Made by a program: the position numbers and the translations under genes. From sequence record PQ306574.1: a DNA stretch of 64,000 bases; one strand, written 5' to 3'. This DNA comes from Escherichia phage vB_EcoM_PTE-Eco09. Position 1 is the first letter of the stretch, and each line of letters opens with the position of its first letter. The notes below the pieces were generated by a model. That model was not told the DNA's origin and did no database searches. It was given only the letters and a program-made list of their open reading frames with translations. This document shows positions 18,700 through 40,452 of the stretch, one piece after another.

Positions 18700-18968
18700 T
18701 GAAAGTCGGTATTATTCAATTATGGACGGCTACCAGTGAAAACTACGCAGTAGCCGTAGATTATTACGGTTTACAATATCTCTATGATGAAGCGAGCGCA
18801 TCATGGCTTCCTGTGCAAGAAAATAGCGATATCTCAAGACCTGCTACTATATTCGACCGTGGCGTTGTCTTTATCGATATTGACGAGACAGTAGCAAAAC
18901 TGCGTAAGAAAGCAATCAACAAGAAAAAGGTGATGTGGGATGAAAGAATATTTGAAACTATTGCGTGA
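18699..18968 (+). CDS. hypothetical protein (about 89 aa)
   Basis: Track ORF 18672-18968 starts at GTG; internal ATG (MKVGII) overlaps the stop of the preceding peptide. Confidence 0.4.
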   Translation: MKVGIIQLWTATSENYAVAVDYYGLQYLYDEASASWLPVQENSDISRPATIFDRGVVFIDIDETVAKLRKKAINKKKVMWDERIFETIA

Positions 18969-20160
18969 TGTTCTCGATAATGGCTGGCCTCGTGAAGATC
19001 GAACGGGGGTAGGTACGCTCTCTAAATTCGGCGCAGAGATGCGAATTGACTTAAGCAAGGGTTTCCCATTACTGACCACTAAAAAGATGGCTACAGCCTC
19101 TGTAATTGGCGAATTGCTATGGTTTATGGAGGGATCACTTGACCGCCGTCGCTTACAGGAAATTACACGCGGTAAGTTTGACGAAGAAGCCTTCGACATT
19201 TGGCGCGGCAACTGTCTTGATATGAAAGAAAAGAATCCTTTGCGATTCAATGGTTATAATGTCGGCAATATGTATGGTATGGCGTGGCGACGCAAACCGA
19301 TTCATCCACACGGTGAAATCAAAATTAAGCGCGTTAAGAGCAAATATACACATACATTTAAGCACCCGTGGGTAGAAGACTTTACGCCAACCAATGAAAC
19401 AGAAGACCGTTTATGTGCTATCTGGCGTGGTATGCGTTATGAAGAGTTTGATTATATTCTGGTAGCAGACCACTGGAAGACTCAATCTAATTTTGTTAAT
19501 GATGCATATTGCTTGTGGGGATTCCAGGAATGGGTAGATGATGGTTATTTCGGTTATCTGCTTGATAGTGATTATCTGGGTGGGGATATTATAGCACCGG
19601 ATACCACGATGTTTGTTAGTATGGACGTAGACACATCAAGCACTAAAGACGATGAAGAATATGTCTATCGCCCGAAGATTTGGGAAGACCAGTTACAAAA
19701 CGTGATCGAACAAATTAAAAACAATCCAACGGATCGCCGGATCATTATTGACTCATGGAACGTACAAGGAACACATAATGCTGTATTAGGTGTATGTCAT
19801 CCTTTCGTGCAATTCTACGTCAATGAAGGTAAACTGTCTTGTATGTGGTTTCAGCGAAGCGTAGACAGCTTTTTAGGCTTGCCCTTTAACGTCGCCAGCT
19901 ATGCGCTGTTAACTCACATCATAGCGAAAATGTGTGATCTTGAGGTAGGAGAACTGATTTTCTCTGGTGGAGATACTCACATTTACAAAAACCATTTTGA
20001 TCAAGTCATGGAACAGTTAAGCCGTGTTCCGTTTGATAAACCAACAATTGAGTTGCCGGAATTTAAATCTTTAGATGAGGTATTGACAAAGACTCCGAAA
20101 GACTTTAAAATTCACAACTATCAAAGCCATCCAGCGATCACCGCTCAAATGGCAGTATAA
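18940..20160 (+). CDS. td: thymidylate synthase (ThyA family) with a ~120-aa in-frame insertion
   Basis: N- and C-terminal regions colinear with T4 Td (DRTG-GT, GFP-TTKK, ELLWF, catalytic CH, QRSVDSFLGLPFN-ASYA-L-HI-AKMC, FSGGDTHIY-NH, PKDF…MAV); extra segment between YGMAWRR and DQLQNVIEQI; no intron. Confidence 0.85.
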   Translation: MKEYLKLLRDVLDNGWPREDRTGVGTLSKFGAEMRIDLSKGFPLLTTKKMATASVIGELLWFMEGSLDRRRLQEITRGKFDEEAFDIWRGNCLDMKEKNPLRFNGYNVGNMYGMAWRRKPIHPHGEIKIKRVKSKYTHTFKHPWVEDFTPTNETEDRLCAIWRGMRYEEFDYILVADHWKTQSNFVNDAYCLWGFQEWVDDGYFGYLLDSDYLGGDIIAPDTTMFVSMDVDTSSTKDDEEYVYRPKIWEDQLQNVIEQIKNNPTDRRIIIDSWNVQGTHNAVLGVCHPFVQFYVNEGKLSCMWFQRSVDSFLGLPFNVASYALLTHIIAKMCDLEVGELIFSGGDTHIYKNHFDQVMEQLSRVPFDKPTIELPEFKSLDEVLTKTPKDFKIHNYQSHPAITAQMAV

Positions 20161-20228: not shown

Positions 20229-22472
20229 ATGATTAAAAATGTTGTTAAGTCTTCCGGTCTGACTGTTCCGTTTGAAAAAGAAAAAGTAATGAAAATTCTG
20301 GAAGCGGCAGCCGAAGGTCATAACGTTGATCCATATGAATTGTTTGATATGGTTGAACCACTTCTGACAGAAGGTATGTCTACCAATGATATCCAGAAAG
20401 TATTGATTAAGGTCGCCGCAGATAACATCACGGTAGAAACACCCGATTATCAATATGTAGCAAGTAACCTTGCAATGTTCGCGCTTCGTAAATCAGTATA
20501 CGGTCAATTCCAACCTATTGATTTTTATAGCCATATTGAGCGTAATATTGCAACCGGAAAATATGATCGCGAAATTCTGCAAAAATATTCCCGTGAAGAA
20601 GTGGAATATCTGGAGAAATTCATCGACCATAAACTTGATTTTAAAATGACCTATGCTGGTGCGATGCAGTTAAAAGAGAAATATCTTGTTCAGGATCGCA
20701 GCACTAAGAAAATCATCGAAACACCGCAATTTGCGTATATGCTGATCGGTATGTGCTTGCATCAAGAAGAGACCGAAAATCGACTTGAACATGTGATTGA
20801 TTTTTATAATGCGGTTGCGAATAAGCAAATCTCTCTGCCTACTCCGATTATGGCAGGTGTGCGTACCCCAACACGCCAATTTAGTTCGTGTGTGGTGATT
20901 GAAAGTGATGACTCATTGCAGGGTATTAATGAAACCGCAAATGCAATCATCAAGTATATTAGCAAGCGTGCTGGTATCGGTATCAACGCTGGCATGATTC
21001 GCGCGGAAGGATCTAAGATCGGGCATGGTGAAGTTCGTCATACTGGAGTTATCCCATTCTGGAAACATTTTCAGACTGCCGTTAAGTCATGCTCACAAGG
21101 CGGTATTCGTGGCGGGGCGGCGACTCTCTATTACCCAATGTGGCATTTAGAGTTTGAAAGTCTGATTGTGTTAAAGAACAATAAGGGGGTGGAAGATAAC
21201 CGCATTCGTCATCTTGATTACGGCGTACAGATTAATAACCTGATGGTAGAGCGATTCCTTAAACGGGATTACATTACTCTGTTTAGTCCAGATGTTGCAG
21301 GTGGCTTGTTGTGGGATCTATACTTCCGAGATGAGGAAGGTTTCCGCCAGCTTTACGAAAAACTGGAAAAAGATCCGAGTGTTCGTAAAACTCGTGTTAA
21401 AGCCGAAGACCTGTTTTTAGCGGTGGCAATTGAACGTTTTAACACTGGTCGAATCTACCCAACGTTCACAGACAACATGAACAATCACGGGGCGTTTATT
21501 CGTAATGTAGCACCGATTAAACAATCTAACCTGTGTTGTGAAATTGCTCTGCCAACAAAACCGATGGGTCGTGATGATTCAGAGATCAGCCTATGCACTT
21601 TGGCAGCATATGTTTTAGGTAATTTCGATATCGAAAATATGGAAGAAGTAGAACGCATTGCTATGGTTATGGTGCGTGCACTTGACAACCTGTTAGATTA
21701 TCAGGATTATCCTGTAGAACAAGCTCTGACAGCCAAAAAACGTCGCTCTCTGGGTGTTGGTGTGACTAACTTTGCATCGTATCTAGCAGATAATTTCTTC
21801 ACATATGAAGACGCTAGCGAGTTTACGCATAAAACGTTTGAACGCTTGCAATATGCTCTGATTAAGGCTAGTGTGCGACTGGCTAAAGAGAAGGGTGCTT
21901 GCGAACTGATGCACGAAACACGCTATGGTCGCGGTGAACTTCCTATCGACTGGTACAAAAAGACAGTAGATGAACTGGTTGATCCGGTGTATGAGATGGA
22001 TTGGGAAGAACTGCGCGAAGACCTGAAAAAATATGGCATTCGTAACAGTACGCTTTCGGCGCTGATGCCCTGTGAGTCATCTTCTCAGGTGTCTAACAGC
22101 ACAAACGGTATTGAACCGCCTCGCGGGATTGTATCGGTTAAAGGATCGAAAGAAGGGCAATTTAATCAGGTTATTCCGAACGTAGAGAATAATGCTGATG
22201 TTATTGACCTGCTTTGGACACTGATCAAGAAAGGTAACAAGCCCTATCTGACACTGGCAGCGATCATGCAGAAGTTTGTAGATCAGGCGATTAGTTCCAA
22301 TACATCCTATGATCCAAGCACTTATAAGACTGGTAAAGTCGATATTGCTGATGTGTTAGATGATATGTTGTTCGCTCAACATTACGGTCTGAAAACCCTG
22401 TATTATGCGAACGTTCGCGACGGTGCAGATGGTACGGAAGACGCTAGCGAGTGCTCATCTTGCAAGCTGTAA
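20229..22472 (+). CDS. nrdA: ribonucleotide reductase large subunit (class Ia alpha)
   Basis: 747 aa; ATP-cone N-terminus, catalytic core motifs (NLCCEI, SALMP-ESSSQ), C-terminal CSSCKL; size as T4 NrdA. Confidence 0.95.
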   Translation: MIKNVVKSSGLTVPFEKEKVMKILEAAAEGHNVDPYELFDMVEPLLTEGMSTNDIQKVLIKVAADNITVETPDYQYVASNLAMFALRKSVYGQFQPIDFYSHIERNIATGKYDREILQKYSREEVEYLEKFIDHKLDFKMTYAGAMQLKEKYLVQDRSTKKIIETPQFAYMLIGMCLHQEETENRLEHVIDFYNAVANKQISLPTPIMAGVRTPTRQFSSCVVIESDDSLQGINETANAIIKYISKRAGIGINAGMIRAEGSKIGHGEVRHTGVIPFWKHFQTAVKSCSQGGIRGGAATLYYPMWHLEFESLIVLKNNKGVEDNRIRHLDYGVQINNLMVERFLKRDYITLFSPDVAGGLLWDLYFRDEEGFRQLYEKLEKDPSVRKTRVKAEDLFLAVAIERFNTGRIYPTFTDNMNNHGAFIRNVAPIKQSNLCCEIALPTKPMGRDDSEISLCTLAAYVLGNFDIENMEEVERIAMVMVRALDNLLDYQDYPVEQALTAKKRRSLGVGVTNFASYLADNFFTYEDASEFTHKTFERLQYALIKASVRLAKEKGACELMHETRYGRGELPIDWYKKTVDELVDPVYEMDWEELREDLKKYGIRNSTLSALMPCESSSQVSNSTNGIEPPRGIVSVKGSKEGQFNQVIPNVENNADVIDLLWTLIKKGNKPYLTLAAIMQKFVDQAISSNTSYDPSTYKTGKVDIADVLDDMLFAQHYGLKTLYYANVRDGADGTEDASECSSCKL

Positions 22473-22480
22473 AATAAGTG

Positions 22481-22509
22481 TTGACGCGGGGAGAAATCCC
22501 CGCTATAAT
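22481..22509 (+). promoter_or_regulatory. early promoter with palindromic spacer (PeSL-like)
   Basis: TTGACG-CGGGGAGAAATCCCCGC-TATAAT then ACAACC-ATCAAAAACA leader. Confidence 0.5.
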
Positions 22510-22540
22510 ACAACCATCAAAAACAAGTGAGGATTTTATT

Positions 22541-22708
22541 ATGACCAAATTAAAATGTGTTGCTGTAGATTTTGAGCTAGCTGATAGCTTTGTTGTTGGT
22601 GATGAATATGATGCTCGACATGATGGGACTTGCTACTACGTCGAGGATGAATACGGTGTAGAATGGGCGATTCTTCCTGATGATAAATGTTTTGAGGTTG
22701 TCGGATAA
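22541..22708 (+). CDS. hypothetical small protein (55 aa)
   Basis: ATG with SD GTGAGG downstream of promoter; track ORF extends upstream without start signals. Confidence 0.45.
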   Translation: MTKLKCVAVDFELADSFVVGDEYDARHDGTCYYVEDEYGVEWAILPDDKCFEVVG

Positions 22709-22881
22709 TGGCTACTGTATGGTTATTGATTGCAATAAGCAATTCAATGTATAATTACGGAAATATGTCAAGCATTGAGTTTGCAACAAAGCAGGATTGC
22801 GTTAAAGCTCGCGAGATTATCCGCGAAGACAATAAACGCTTTATGAATCTATATTGCGTTGAAAAACAAAAGGTGAACTAA
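22708..22881 (+). CDS. small hydrophobic-N-terminus protein, paralog 1 (57 aa)
   Basis: MATVWLLIAISNS…CVEKQKVN; start overlaps upstream stop (TAATG); hand-derived. Confidence 0.4.
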   Translation: MATVWLLIAISNSMYNYGNMSSIEFATKQDCVKAREIIREDNKRFMNLYCVEKQKVN

Positions 22882-23048
22882 TGGCTACATTATGGTTATT
22901 GCTTTCCGTTAGCGTAGGCGTATATAATAAAGGAACTGTTACCAGCGTAGAGTTTTCATCATATCAAAATTGTTTTGAAGCTGTGCAGGAATTGCAGCAG
23001 GATAGCGAAATAAACAGAAATACTAAGTTCTTTTGTGTTAAAAAGTGA
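22881..23048 (+). CDS. small hydrophobic-N-terminus protein, paralog 2 (55 aa)
   Basis: MATLWLLLSVSVG…FCVKK; paralogous to previous ORF; start overlaps upstream stop. Confidence 0.4.
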   Translation: MATLWLLLSVSVGVYNKGTVTSVEFSSYQNCFEAVQELQQDSEINRNTKFFCVKK

Positions 23049-23117: not shown

Positions 23118-23765
23118 ATGAACTTACAAAAACTACATGACGCAATCATAGAAAAAGCAAAGACGAGAGGAACCGTTGAAGGGTATAAGGAAACACATCA
23201 TATTTTACCGCGATCTATGGGTGGCGGTGATGAAGTTGATAACCTGATTGAGTTGACAGCAAAAGAACATTTCGTGATTCATCATCTGCTAGCAAAAATT
23301 CATGGTGGACCTATGGCACAAGCATTTGGTATGATGTGTTTAGCAAAAAATGCGAAGACCAATAAAAGAGATTATATTGTTTCGTCTAGGGTATATGAAC
23401 AAGCTAGGGTACTTATCTCTGAACAAAGAAAGGGCAAACCTATGAAAGAAGAAACGCGAAGAAAGATTAGCGAATCTTCGAAAGGTGTGTTGAAATCAGA
23501 AGAGACAAAAGCTAAAATGCGTAAGCCAAAAACAAAGGAGCACGCGTTAAACATTTCAAAAGCTAGAATGGGCAGTAAAAATCCTATGTTTGGGAAACCA
23601 TCGCCAACTAAAGGAATACCACATAGTGAGGAAATGAGAAAGCTGATTGCACAAAGGACAAAGGAAGCAACAATGGCAGATCCTTGTCCGCATTGCGGTA
23701 AAATTACCAATAAAGGCAATTCTCTACGATGGCACTTTGATAACTGTAAAATGAGGAATATGTGA
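23118..23765 (+). CDS. HNH homing endonuclease with NUMOD-like repeats, in the nrdA-nrdB intergenic position (as mobE in T4)
   Basis: HNH motif (HHILPRSMGGGDEVDNLIELTAKEH-HH); repeated KxExxxK(I/M)(S/R) NUMOD-like modules. Confidence 0.7.
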   Translation: MNLQKLHDAIIEKAKTRGTVEGYKETHHILPRSMGGGDEVDNLIELTAKEHFVIHHLLAKIHGGPMAQAFGMMCLAKNAKTNKRDYIVSSRVYEQARVLISEQRKGKPMKEETRRKISESSKGVLKSEETKAKMRKPKTKEHALNISKARMGSKNPMFGKPSPTKGIPHSEEMRKLIAQRTKEATMADPCPHCGKITNKGNSLRWHFDNCKMRNM

Positions 23766-24932
23766 ATGGGAAATACGGTATTTAATCGTGAACACGTTGA
23801 TATTATGAATGAACCGATGTTTCTGGGCAGCGGTTTAGGTATCGCTCGTTATGACATTCAGCGTCATCAAGTATTTGAAGAATTAATTGAAAAATCTCTG
23901 TCATTTTTTTGGCGCCCCGAAGAAATTTCACTTGCAACCGACCGCATTCAATATCTTAATATGGGTGACGTTGAAAAGCGTTTCTTTACTGAAAACTTGA
24001 AGTATCAGACATTACTTGATTCTATTCAAGGTCGCGCACCGTCCGCAGCATTTGGTCCAATTGTATCTGATCCAACTCTCGATACATGGTTGCAAACATG
24101 GACATTCAGCGAAACGATTCATAGCCGAAGCTATACACACATTATGCGTAACTGTTTCATTGATCCGGCTAGTGAGTTCGACCAGATCATCGATAACCCT
24201 GCTATCATGAAGCGAGCGGAATCTATCGGGAAATATTATGATGATGTTCTTTATTGGATTCGTAAGTATGAGAATGCAAAAGAAGATCTCCGCTATTGGG
24301 AAGAACGAGACGACCAGACAGCATTAGATGATGCAAGAAGATTTTTTGAAGATACAAAACGAGATCTGATGGCTTCGATTTATCTGTGTGCACACTGCGT
24401 AAATGCACTGGAAGCAATCCGTTTTTATGTGTCCTTTGCATGTACTTTCAGCTTTGCCGAACGTGGTTTACTGGAAGGTAACGCGAAGATCATGAAATTT
24501 ATTGCGCGTGATGAACAACTTCACTTAAAAGGAACACAATACATTATTCGTCAATGGCAAACGGGGGTTGATGGTGATGAGTGGAAACAGATTGCGGAAG
24601 AACTTGAAGGCGAAGCAACGAAAATCTTTCTGGATGTTGTCGAGCAAGAAAAAGAATGGGTAGACCACCTATTCGCAATGGGGGCAATTCCTAACCTGTC
24701 ACCGGAAATTCTGAAAACCTATGTAGAATACCTGGCAGATTCCCGTATGCGTGCTGCCGGACTGAAAAGCCCGTTTAGTGTTCGTCGTCATCCGTTACCG
24801 TGGATGCGTAAATGGTTGAACTCTGACGAAGTACAGAATGCAGCGCAGGAAGTAGAGATTATGTATCTGGTATCTCAGGTTAATACCGATTTAACAGACG
24901 ACGACTACAACCGATTCGGGAAATATCTATGA
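23766..24932 (+). CDS. nrdB: ribonucleotide reductase small subunit (class Ia beta)
   Basis: 388 aa, same length as T4 NrdB; di-iron/tyrosyl radical protein motifs (SETIHSRSYTHI, CTFSFAERG, ARDEQLH); continuous ORF. Confidence 0.95.
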   Translation: MGNTVFNREHVDIMNEPMFLGSGLGIARYDIQRHQVFEELIEKSLSFFWRPEEISLATDRIQYLNMGDVEKRFFTENLKYQTLLDSIQGRAPSAAFGPIVSDPTLDTWLQTWTFSETIHSRSYTHIMRNCFIDPASEFDQIIDNPAIMKRAESIGKYYDDVLYWIRKYENAKEDLRYWEERDDQTALDDARRFFEDTKRDLMASIYLCAHCVNALEAIRFYVSFACTFSFAERGLLEGNAKIMKFIARDEQLHLKGTQYIIRQWQTGVDGDEWKQIAEELEGEATKIFLDVVEQEKEWVDHLFAMGAIPNLSPEILKTYVEYLADSRMRAAGLKSPFSVRRHPLPWMRKWLNSDEVQNAAQEVEIMYLVSQVNTDLTDDDYNRFGKYL

Positions 24933-37771: not shown

Positions 37772-37800
37772 TTGACGGGGATCGGGAGATCCCCTATAAT
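37772..37800 (+). promoter_or_regulatory. PeSL-like element
   Basis: TTGACG-GGGATCGGGAGATCCCC-TATAAT; palindromic spacer. Confidence 0.55.
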
Positions 37801-40148: not shown

Positions 40149-40177
40149 TTGACAGGGGATCGGTGATCCCCTATAAT
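40149..40177 (+). promoter_or_regulatory. PeSL-like element
   Basis: TTGACA-GGGGATCGGTGATCCCC-TATAAT; same spacer palindrome as at 34100. Confidence 0.55.
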
Positions 40178-40213: not shown

Positions 40214-40426
40214 ATGGCTAACATCGAAATCATCATTACCGACGTAACTTATGACCGCATTAACGAAATCGGTACTGCATTACTGGAAGATGGAACAACT
40301 CGTACCATCAACTACGCAGAATACGTTGAAATGCGTGGTTGTATTAAACGAGTAGGAAAATATATCCTGATTGAAAAAGACTATTCAGGATACACCTTAG
40401 AGCAATTGCTTGATGGTGCATTATAA
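40214..40426 (+). CDS. hypothetical protein (70 aa)
   Basis: ATG ORF (MANIEIIITDV…) behind PeSL. Confidence 0.5.
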   Translation: MANIEIIITDVTYDRINEIGTALLEDGTTRTINYAEYVEMRGCIKRVGKYILIEKDYSGYTLEQLLDGAL

Positions 40427-40432
40427 TAAAAA

Positions 40433-40452
40433 GGGGCGTTAAGCCCCGTTTT
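40433..40452 (+). terminator. terminator-like hairpin
   Basis: GGGGC-GTTAA-GCCCC then GTTTTC; same hairpin as at 36653. Confidence 0.5.

Follow-up and report, generated by a model that had tools for sequence, protein, structure and literature searches.

The window, a 64,000-nucleotide stretch of Escherichia phage vB_EcoM_PTE-Eco09 (PQ306574.1), is RB49-like and belongs to a T4-type coliphage of the genus Krischvirus. An 801-nt stretch around the two genes considered here, ORF1 and ORF2, is matched at 90-99% identity by 58 phage records, nearly all of them Escherichia or Shigella Krischvirus. The two genes lie between nrdA and nrdB in a group of three small ORFs that begins 69 nt 3' of the nrdA stop codon (22472) (Table 1). 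A preliminary description had placed two overlapping small ORFs at 22708-23048, after nrdA, and both the coordinates and the two stop/start overlaps are borne out: TAATG at 22706-22710 joins the stop codon of the upstream 55-aa ORF to the ORF1 start, and TAATG at 22879-22883 joins the ORF1 stop codon to the ORF2 start. ORF1 and ORF2 are members of phrog_5579, whereas the upstream ORF belongs to an unrelated family, phrog_16302.

Table 1. Features between and including nrdA and nrdB; positions are those of the window.
Feature	Position	Strand	Basis
nrdA, ribonucleotide reductase large subunit	20229..22472	+	747-aa ORF; aligned RB49 and SSG23 regions annotated nrdA / ribonucleotide reductase large subunit
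Promoter-early stem-loop (PeSL)	22478..22511	+	TTGACG 22481-22486, 17-nt spacer, TATAAT 22504-22509; hairpin 22486-22503
Upstream 55-aa ORF, RB49p233 homolog, first of the small-ORF cassette	22541..22708	+	annotated CDS in RB49 and SSG23; phrog_16302, E 9e-42
ORF1, 57 aa, phrog_5579 member	22708..22881	+	100% identical to RB49p232
ORF2, 55 aa, phrog_5579 member, ORF1 paralog	22881..23048	+	RB49p231 homolog
HNH + NUMOD3 homing endonuclease, 215 aa	23118..23765	+	NUMOD3, E 2.7e-9; phrog_655 (homing endonuclease), E 1.8e-55
nrdB, ribonucleotide reductase small subunit	23766..24932	+	388-aa ORF; annotated nrdB in RB49 and SSG23

In RB49 the three small ORFs are RB49p233, p232 and p231, each labelled 'hypothetical protein', and nrdB follows 16 nt further on. 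The homing endonuclease that separates ORF2 from nrdB in the window is present in Shigella phage SSG23 and absent from RB49. With the 801-nt query, the alignment ends at query position 666 (23065 of the window) in 27 of the 30 Krischvirus matches listed. The HNH/NUMOD3 endonuclease is a polymorphic mobile gene outside the paralog pair. In these phages the gap between nrdA and nrdB is generally a hotspot for insertions and houses homing endonucleases and a methyltransferase cassette.

A similar arrangement is found in T4, where the nrdA-nrdB intergenic region holds nrdA.1, nrdA.2 and mobE, which we take to be small ORFs without an assigned function and a free-standing homing endonuclease. The window resembles T4 in having small ORFs and a homing endonuclease between nrdA and nrdB, but its endonuclease is of the HNH/NUMOD3 type. 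A tblastn search with ORF1 returned Krischvirus-type records only, with no match listed under the T4 name, so the small ORFs of T4 are not detectably homologous to ORF1.

Promoter and translation signals

Directly 3' of nrdA lies a promoter whose hexamers, TTGACG and TATAAT at a spacing of 17 nt (22481-22509), agree with the consensus at 11 of 12 positions. Between the -35 and -10 hexamers stands a hairpin, GCGGGGA-GAAA-TCCCCGC, with an RNA folding energy of -19 kcal/mol (z -4.8). The GGGG..CCCC..TATAAT motif occurs four times in the window against 0.03 expected. This regulatory element class, the PeSL, is already published. As described from RB49 and phi1, a PeSL is a strong sigma-70-like early promoter joined to a stem-loop that acts as terminator or attenuator; it is found with small ORFans and provides a site of recombination through which cassettes are shuffled (PMC2839356). 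Promoter and terminator activity were demonstrated with lacZ fusions for other PeSLs of RB49 and phi1 in a study in which neither nrdA nor nrdB is mentioned (Arbiol et al. 2010, PMC2839356). The element behind nrdA has the defining parts of those cassettes, a GGGG...CCCC stem-loop between the hexamers and, downstream, the Shine-Dalgarno sequence and start codon (ATG) of a small ORF. It differs from them in that the group is bounded by a single PeSL, with no second one behind ORF2; the three ORFs thus do not form a two-sided excisable cassette. By analogy, the PeSL is a probable attenuator of nrdA read-through and a probable early promoter for the three small ORFs; the presence of this class of element after nrdA makes them most likely early genes with a promoter of their own.

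The upstream 55-aa ORF has GAGGA 7 nt before its ATG, and the AAGGTG that stands 5 nt before the ATG of ORF2 is a good Shine-Dalgarno sequence. For ORF1, whose GAGG is 10 nt away, coupling to the upstream ORF may be of importance. Translational coupling had been proposed in the preliminary description from the overlapping codons. The overlaps themselves are present, and 1- or 4-nt overlaps with the upstream or downstream gene recur for homologs on six unrelated phage contigs; read from the sequence, such junctions would fit coupling.

A family of small two-cysteine proteins

ORF1 and ORF2 begin with MATVWLLIAIS and MATLWLLLSVS and carry the C-terminal motifs CVEK and CVKK, respectively. Over their full length they align by BLASTP at 38% identity and 75% positives (E 6e-16), and both match the phrog_5579 profile at positions 1-52 of 52 (E 6.8e-24 for ORF1 and 5.7e-24 for ORF2). 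The earlier proposal of tandem paralogs, made from the common terminal motifs, agrees with these results, and the paralogy is far beyond chance. A family HMM run on the six-frame translation of the 64-kb window detected no copy beyond these two, the next-best segment scoring 5.9 bits. The identity between ORF1 and ORF2 (40%) is comparable to the 39-51% found with homologs from other phages, so the pair is either old or was acquired twice.

An exhaustive HMMER profile search over 1.84 billion representative proteins, with a cut-off of E<=1e-3, produced 51 matches, two of them spurious. P0020 (775 aa, 10 stretches) and P0032 (351 aa, 5 stretches) were rejected as homologs; both consist of low-complexity tandem repeats and have neither the motif nor the Cys pattern. 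The homologs are 44-113 aa long, all but two of them within 51-76 aa, and phrog_5579 is matched by every one of the 49 collected. Of the seven loci that a degenerate DNA motif picked out in viral contigs, four were true: two new members (on contigs L020 and L021) and two Krischvirus copies. Word-indexed searches recovered close Krischvirus variants only, and a tblastn search of phages with the distant member P0021 found no match. When the strict family motif was sought in 185,579 representative bacterial and archaeal genomes, the 10 loci found were all chance matches. Scans of ORF1 and ORF2 against Pfam, NCBIfam and PADLOC returned nothing meaningful, a profile search of PDB sequences gave no match below E 0.78, and a literature search on the RB49 locus tags and on Krischvirus transcriptomics found nothing useful.

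In the 49-sequence alignment two Cys are invariant and three further residues (L7, G18 and F25) almost so. Per-column counts give the N-terminal signature (T)-h-W-L-L-h-x-h-S-x-G-x-Y-N-x-G-(T/N), which continues as h-x-h-h-E-F-x-(T/S)-x-x-x-C, followed by an amphipathic helix and then C-(V/I) near the C-terminus. W5 is conserved in 41 of 46 members, L7 in 44, S11 in 40 and G13 in 34. Exactly two Cys are present in 45 of the 46, and their spacing is 15-27 residues, again in 45.

ORFs as short as these two might be chance ORFs or non-coding sequence. Set against this, homologs at 26-50% identity occur on many unrelated phage contigs with the motif and the Cys pair kept, Shine-Dalgarno sequences precede both ORFs, and an Rfam scan of the region found no RNA family. 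Codon differences among three related genomes are mainly synonymous in ORF1 (6 synonymous against 1 non-synonymous); in ORF2 the counts are 8 and 7, and ORF2 differs from RB49p231 by synonymous changes only. A chance origin has next to no probability and is already refuted by the conservation pattern: ORF1 and ORF2 are real, conserved protein genes. The preliminary description had named a complete lack of homologs as grounds against the pair; a homolog search in related phages shows that homologs are plentiful, with ORF1 present at >=95% identity in 52 Krischvirus records and some 49 diverse sequences in the wider family. ORF1, ORF2 and phrog_5579 were already in databases as hypothetical proteins.

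Predicted fold, location and gene neighbourhoods

AlphaFold2 folds ORF1 as a strand-strand-helix-strand mini-domain with strands at residues 4-11, 20-25 and 46-53 and a helix at 28-41 (pLDDT 89.2, pTM 0.71, from the 49-sequence alignment, which is shallow for this method). A shallower family alignment lowers the pLDDT to 78 and leaves the topology unchanged. The hydrophobic N-terminal block, residues 4-11, is modelled as strand 1 with a pLDDT of 88, and in this layout strand 1 would be the central, buried strand of a three-stranded sheet. The strand is hydrophobic throughout positions 4 to 10 (V4, W5, L6, L7, I8 and V/I10 among them), which takes in both faces, so the second face would have to be covered by a partner, which may be a dimer mate or a target. 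The two invariant cysteines fall in the first helix turn (C31) and in strand 3 (C50). The helix has a buried periodicity of C31, A34 and I38, and C50 falls on the alternating buried positions of strand 3; this secondary-structure layout and residue periodicity suggest that both cysteines point into the core between helix and sheet and are probably neighbours in contact.

A Foldseek search of BFVD found many uncharacterised phage proteins of 55-65 aa with the same fold (TM 0.7-0.8), among them the paralog from phage Ec_Makalu_003 (E 2.7e-4). Against the PDB, two models returned SbtB (PII-like), PsaD, ERH and MzrA at E>0.2; these are generic small alpha/beta matches and were set aside as non-specific.

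The hydrophobic N-termini had led the preliminary description to propose membrane-anchored peptides. In its fuller form, this proposal treats the N-terminal stretch as a short signal peptide or anchor and the remainder as a disulfide-locked periplasmic mini-domain that might, for example, serve in superinfection exclusion or act on the envelope. S11 and G13 could fit the -3/-1 positions of a signal-peptidase cleavage site, and the Cys pair, invariant and probably close in space, would suit a disulfide made by DsbA; such pairs are seen more typically in extracytoplasmic, disulfide-bonded proteins than in those of the cytoplasm, which counts against a cytoplasmic location. The hydrophobic run is, however, too short, at about 8-12 residues with a family median of 12 when small polar residues are counted and a purely hydrophobic part of about 7. 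A transmembrane helix would need some 19 residues, and the h-region of a signal peptide 10-15. Cleavage after G13-G15 would leave a signal peptide shorter than the natural ones known. A basic n-region is missing as well: both proteins start with MAT-, 41 of 46 members have no Lys or Arg before the run, and four have an acidic residue there. The best 19-residue Kyte-Doolittle window reaches 0.61 in ORF1 and 1.07 in ORF2, and 45 of the 46 members stay below 1.6. A crude, position-independent insertion energy of the Hessa type was positive in all 46 members and is given little weight because the lambda S105 control was positive too. There is no lipobox, and the N-terminal segment, with its nearly invariant W5 and L7, ranks among the best-conserved stretches of the family, although signal peptides are rarely so conserved. 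AlphaFold2 places this segment in the sheet with high confidence, and S11 and G13 where strand 1 ends and turns towards strand 2. Anchored or exported peptides are therefore considered unlikely, and the description of the pair as membrane peptides does not hold up well.

Homologs occupy diverse neighbourhoods. On L013, another T4-like contig, a single homolog lies between nrdB and an nrdA split by a homing endonuclease. L005 has its homolog between the genes for thymidylate synthase and DHFR, with a glutaredoxin gene nearby, and L009 near a dCMP deaminase gene. Further homologs are flanked by DNA ligase and primase-helicase (L007) or, in Koutsourovirus-like podophages (L003 and L004), by helicase and DNA polymerase; another is downstream of a rIIB-like gene (L029), and several stand inside runs of small ORFs that encode unknown proteins (L006, L011, L020, L021, L028, L030 and L031). 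RNA ligase is likewise among the contexts. Extra divergent copies of the family are present on L005 and L021. Across these early, replication and nucleotide-metabolism regions no neighbour is constant, so guilt by association assigns no function beyond that of an accessory gene of the early or middle region. One natural Krischvirus contig carries a 44-aa deletion chimera of ORF1 and ORF2 from which the first Cys and the start of the helix are missing, which suggests dispensability. The chimera adjoins a different homing endonuclease. ORF1 and ORF2 look like dispensable accessory genes.

The position of the pair between nrdA and nrdB raises the question of an accessory or redox factor of ribonucleotide reductase (RNR) in the manner of NrdH, glutaredoxin or YfaE, in which the Cys pair would shuttle electrons or help to hold a metal or Fe-S centre for NrdA and NrdB. 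The L013 and L005 neighbourhoods are in keeping with such a role. Redox-active cysteines are frequently placed in the first turn of a helix, as one of the two cysteines is in the model. Most homolog contexts, however, are without RNR genes, and the insertion hotspot offers another setting for the Krischvirus copies. The proteins have no CxxC motif, their cysteines being 15-27 residues apart, and the cysteines appear to face the core and not to be exposed. Neither Pfam, NCBIfam nor the PDB gave a match to thioredoxin, glutaredoxin or ferredoxin. A function in ribonucleotide reduction is very doubtful on this evidence.

Comparison with YdfD and a proposed mode of action

The closest characterised analogue of ORF1 and ORF2 is YdfD, a DUF1482 protein and the best available model for a mini-protein of this kind. 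YdfD is a lysis protein of the Qin prophage that binds IspG through its N-terminal half, the whole protein being needed for activity; its two conserved Cys are dispensable for IspG binding (PMC8835842). The YdfD pull-down list also included ErpA and IscS, and the dicB and ydfD genes are described as having a 'partial overlap' (PMC8835842). The DUF1482 comparison set (YdfD and YebW of lambdoid prophages) consisted of real sequences recovered from phage records. These proteins resemble phrog_5579 in their length of about 60 aa, a hydrophobic N-terminal segment without basic residues, a Gly-containing turn, a second strand and a helix start of the form T/S-x-x-x-C with a second Cys 13-20 residues on, so that the two conserved Cys align. 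The predicted fold class may also be alike, and the gene often overlaps the upstream gene. DUF1482 differs in having an extra acidic C-terminal tail and neither the WLL nor the YNxG motif, and it inhabits temperate enterobacterial prophages whereas phrog_5579 is found on virulent-type phage contigs.

Comparison of the two families by hhalign gave P 0.02, or 0.005 with cleaned alignments, at a probability of 2-7% and with both Cys aligned. The family HMM scored six DUF1482 proteins at 2.0-8.0 bits; the best two (8.0 and 7.7) lie above the best of 986 unrelated window segments (5.9 bits). Pfam PF07358 did not match ORF1 or ORF2 at E<=1. Its best match among the 49 homologs reached 12.9 bits (E 0.11; residues 1-37 on profile positions 1-37) against a gathering cutoff of 25, and genuine DUF1482 proteins score 69-119 bits. 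A BFVD entry named 'DUF1482 family protein' superposes with TM 0.72 and an rmsd of 2.2 over 55 columns (E 0.24). PHROGs keeps phrog_5579 apart from DUF1482 (phrog_1092). Taken together, the comparisons are suggestive: homology between phrog_5579 and DUF1482 is plausible and unproven, and the phrog_5579 proteins fall outside the Pfam family.

If phrog_5579 were a divergent branch of DUF1482, its members might be true YdfD-type toxins that inhibit host IspG, and with it isoprenoid synthesis, in host shut-off or lysis. The common layout with its aligned Cys positions, the two DUF1482 scores above all unrelated segments, the collinear PF07358 match of one family member and the structural match all point in this direction, but significance is reached in no test, and PHROGs holds the two families separate. 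The loop that is best conserved in phrog_5579, YNxG, is absent from DUF1482, so the target of phrog_5579 proteins is probably a different one. The strict phrog_5579 motif is likewise absent from the bacterial and archaeal genomes searched, whereas DUF1482 inhabits enterobacterial prophages. T4-type phages, moreover, already have a holin and an endolysin. A toxin of the YdfD type is accordingly judged quite improbable.

A broader proposal, which is a very long shot, joins phrog_5579 and DUF1482/YdfD in one superfamily in which the Cys pair, brought together by dimerization, would form a metal or Fe-S centre or a redox switch and would target iron-sulfur or radical enzymes of the host. The dimer might be an ORF1-ORF2 heterodimer, its subunits supplied in equal amounts through translational coupling. 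The proposal cites IspG as a [4Fe-4S] enzyme and the Krischvirus copies as lying inside the RNR operon.

The reading preferred here, held at a probability of about 0.55, takes ORF1 and ORF2 for mini-proteins of the strand-strand-helix-strand type that are made early, stay in the cytoplasm and work by binding another protein. Host sigma-70 RNA polymerase would initiate at the PeSL promoter, just past nrdA, and produce a single early mRNA that carries the 55-aa ORF, ORF1 and ORF2 and runs on towards nrdB. Ribosomes ending one ORF would restart at the overlapping TAATG, so that the three proteins would be made together. In the cytoplasm ORF1 and ORF2 would each form a mini-domain some 55 residues long, with the hydrophobic N-terminus serving as strand 1 and not as an anchor. 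With both faces of strand 1 hydrophobic and the SxGxYNxG loop near-invariant, pairing and loop-mediated binding are both probable: the two proteins would probably pair as homo- or hetero-dimers, and the loop would probably bind a host or phage protein stoichiometrically, in a manner resembling the binding and inhibition of IspG by YdfD.

As found, the pair is of little consequence, since it consists of annotated hypothetical proteins from a well-sequenced phage group, in a region known to gather accessory ORFs. What the analysis adds is that their reading as membrane peptides is probably wrong, and that they belong to a broad family whose sharply conserved loop and Cys pair make it a tractable candidate among the uncharacterised early 'ORFan' proteins. 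Such proteins are thought to adapt T4-type phages to their hosts. Few small phage proteins have a host target that has been identified; YdfD is among them, and the lead it offers is testable.

An insertion hotspot between nrdA and nrdB

The gap between nrdA and nrdB is a hotspot for insertions. An HNH/NUMOD3 homing endonuclease gene lies in this gap in the window and in SSG23, SFHK24 and phiS; RB49 and most relatives have no insert at the site, and a metagenomic relative (L032) harbors a different endonuclease, HNH_3/AP2, at the same position. In phage KMB43 a gene for a DNA-cytosine methyltransferase has been inserted after nrdA, ahead of the first small ORF. On a different T4-like contig (L013), a gene for an I-HmuI/NUMOD-like endonuclease (237 aa) divides nrdA into two ORFs of 476 and 324 aa. 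The small-protein family (phrog_5579) is represented there by one copy, which follows the second part of nrdA and precedes nrdB.

Coordinates of features in the window and at homolog or relative loci (L numbers) on other phage contigs
Feature	Location	Strand	Detail
Thymidylate synthase gene	window 18940-20160		406 aa
PeSL	window 22478-22511	+	TTGACG-17-TATAAT
First ORF of trio	window 22541-22708		55 aa, phrog_16302
PeSL-like motif	window 37777-37800	+	GGGG..CCCC..TATAAT
PeSL-like motif	window 40155-40177	+	GGGG..CCCC..TATAAT
PeSL-like motif	window 40420-40447	-	GGGG..CCCC..TATAAT
nrdA-nrdB gap inserts	window 23118-23765; L032 1732-2271; L033 632-1483
Split nrdA, endonuclease, family member	L013 1753-4940
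P0004, ORF1/ORF2 chimera	L032 1587-1721		44 aa
Family member	L003 2632-2811 (Enterobacter phage SDFMU_EhYP, OQ884031.1 2650-2799)		E 2e-21
Second family copy	L005 6167-6355		very divergent
Second family copy	L021 9426-9638		very divergent

The promoter element and neighboring genes

In the promoter at 22478-22511, which is close to the sigma-70 consensus, the -35 and -10 hexamers flank a GC-rich hairpin. This is the arrangement of the promoter-early stem-loop (PeSL) described for RB49/phi1 (PMC2839356), and the promoter is an element of this kind. The product of the first small ORF is acidic, contains three cysteines and weakly matches DUF7244 (E 0.023). Ordinary ThyA and T4 Td are ~120 aa shorter than the thymidylate synthase of the window, which has an extra segment mid-protein; a 412-aa version is encoded on the related contig L013 (166-1404).

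Chimeric and distant members of the family

P0004, from L032, joins residues 1-29 of ORF1 to residues 41-55 of its paralog ORF2 at a GCAGGAT (Gln-Asp) microhomology common to both, and the deletion removes the first cysteine. Either a deletion in nature joined the two paralogs, or the chimera is an artefact of assembly. The deposited podophage genome OQ884031.1 encodes a clear, unannotated family member located in the gap between an AAA ATPase/helicase gene and a DNA polymerase gene. Second copies occur on two unrelated phage contigs (L005, E 1.7e-5; L021, E 7e-4), and the two-copy state is therefore not confined to Krischvirus.
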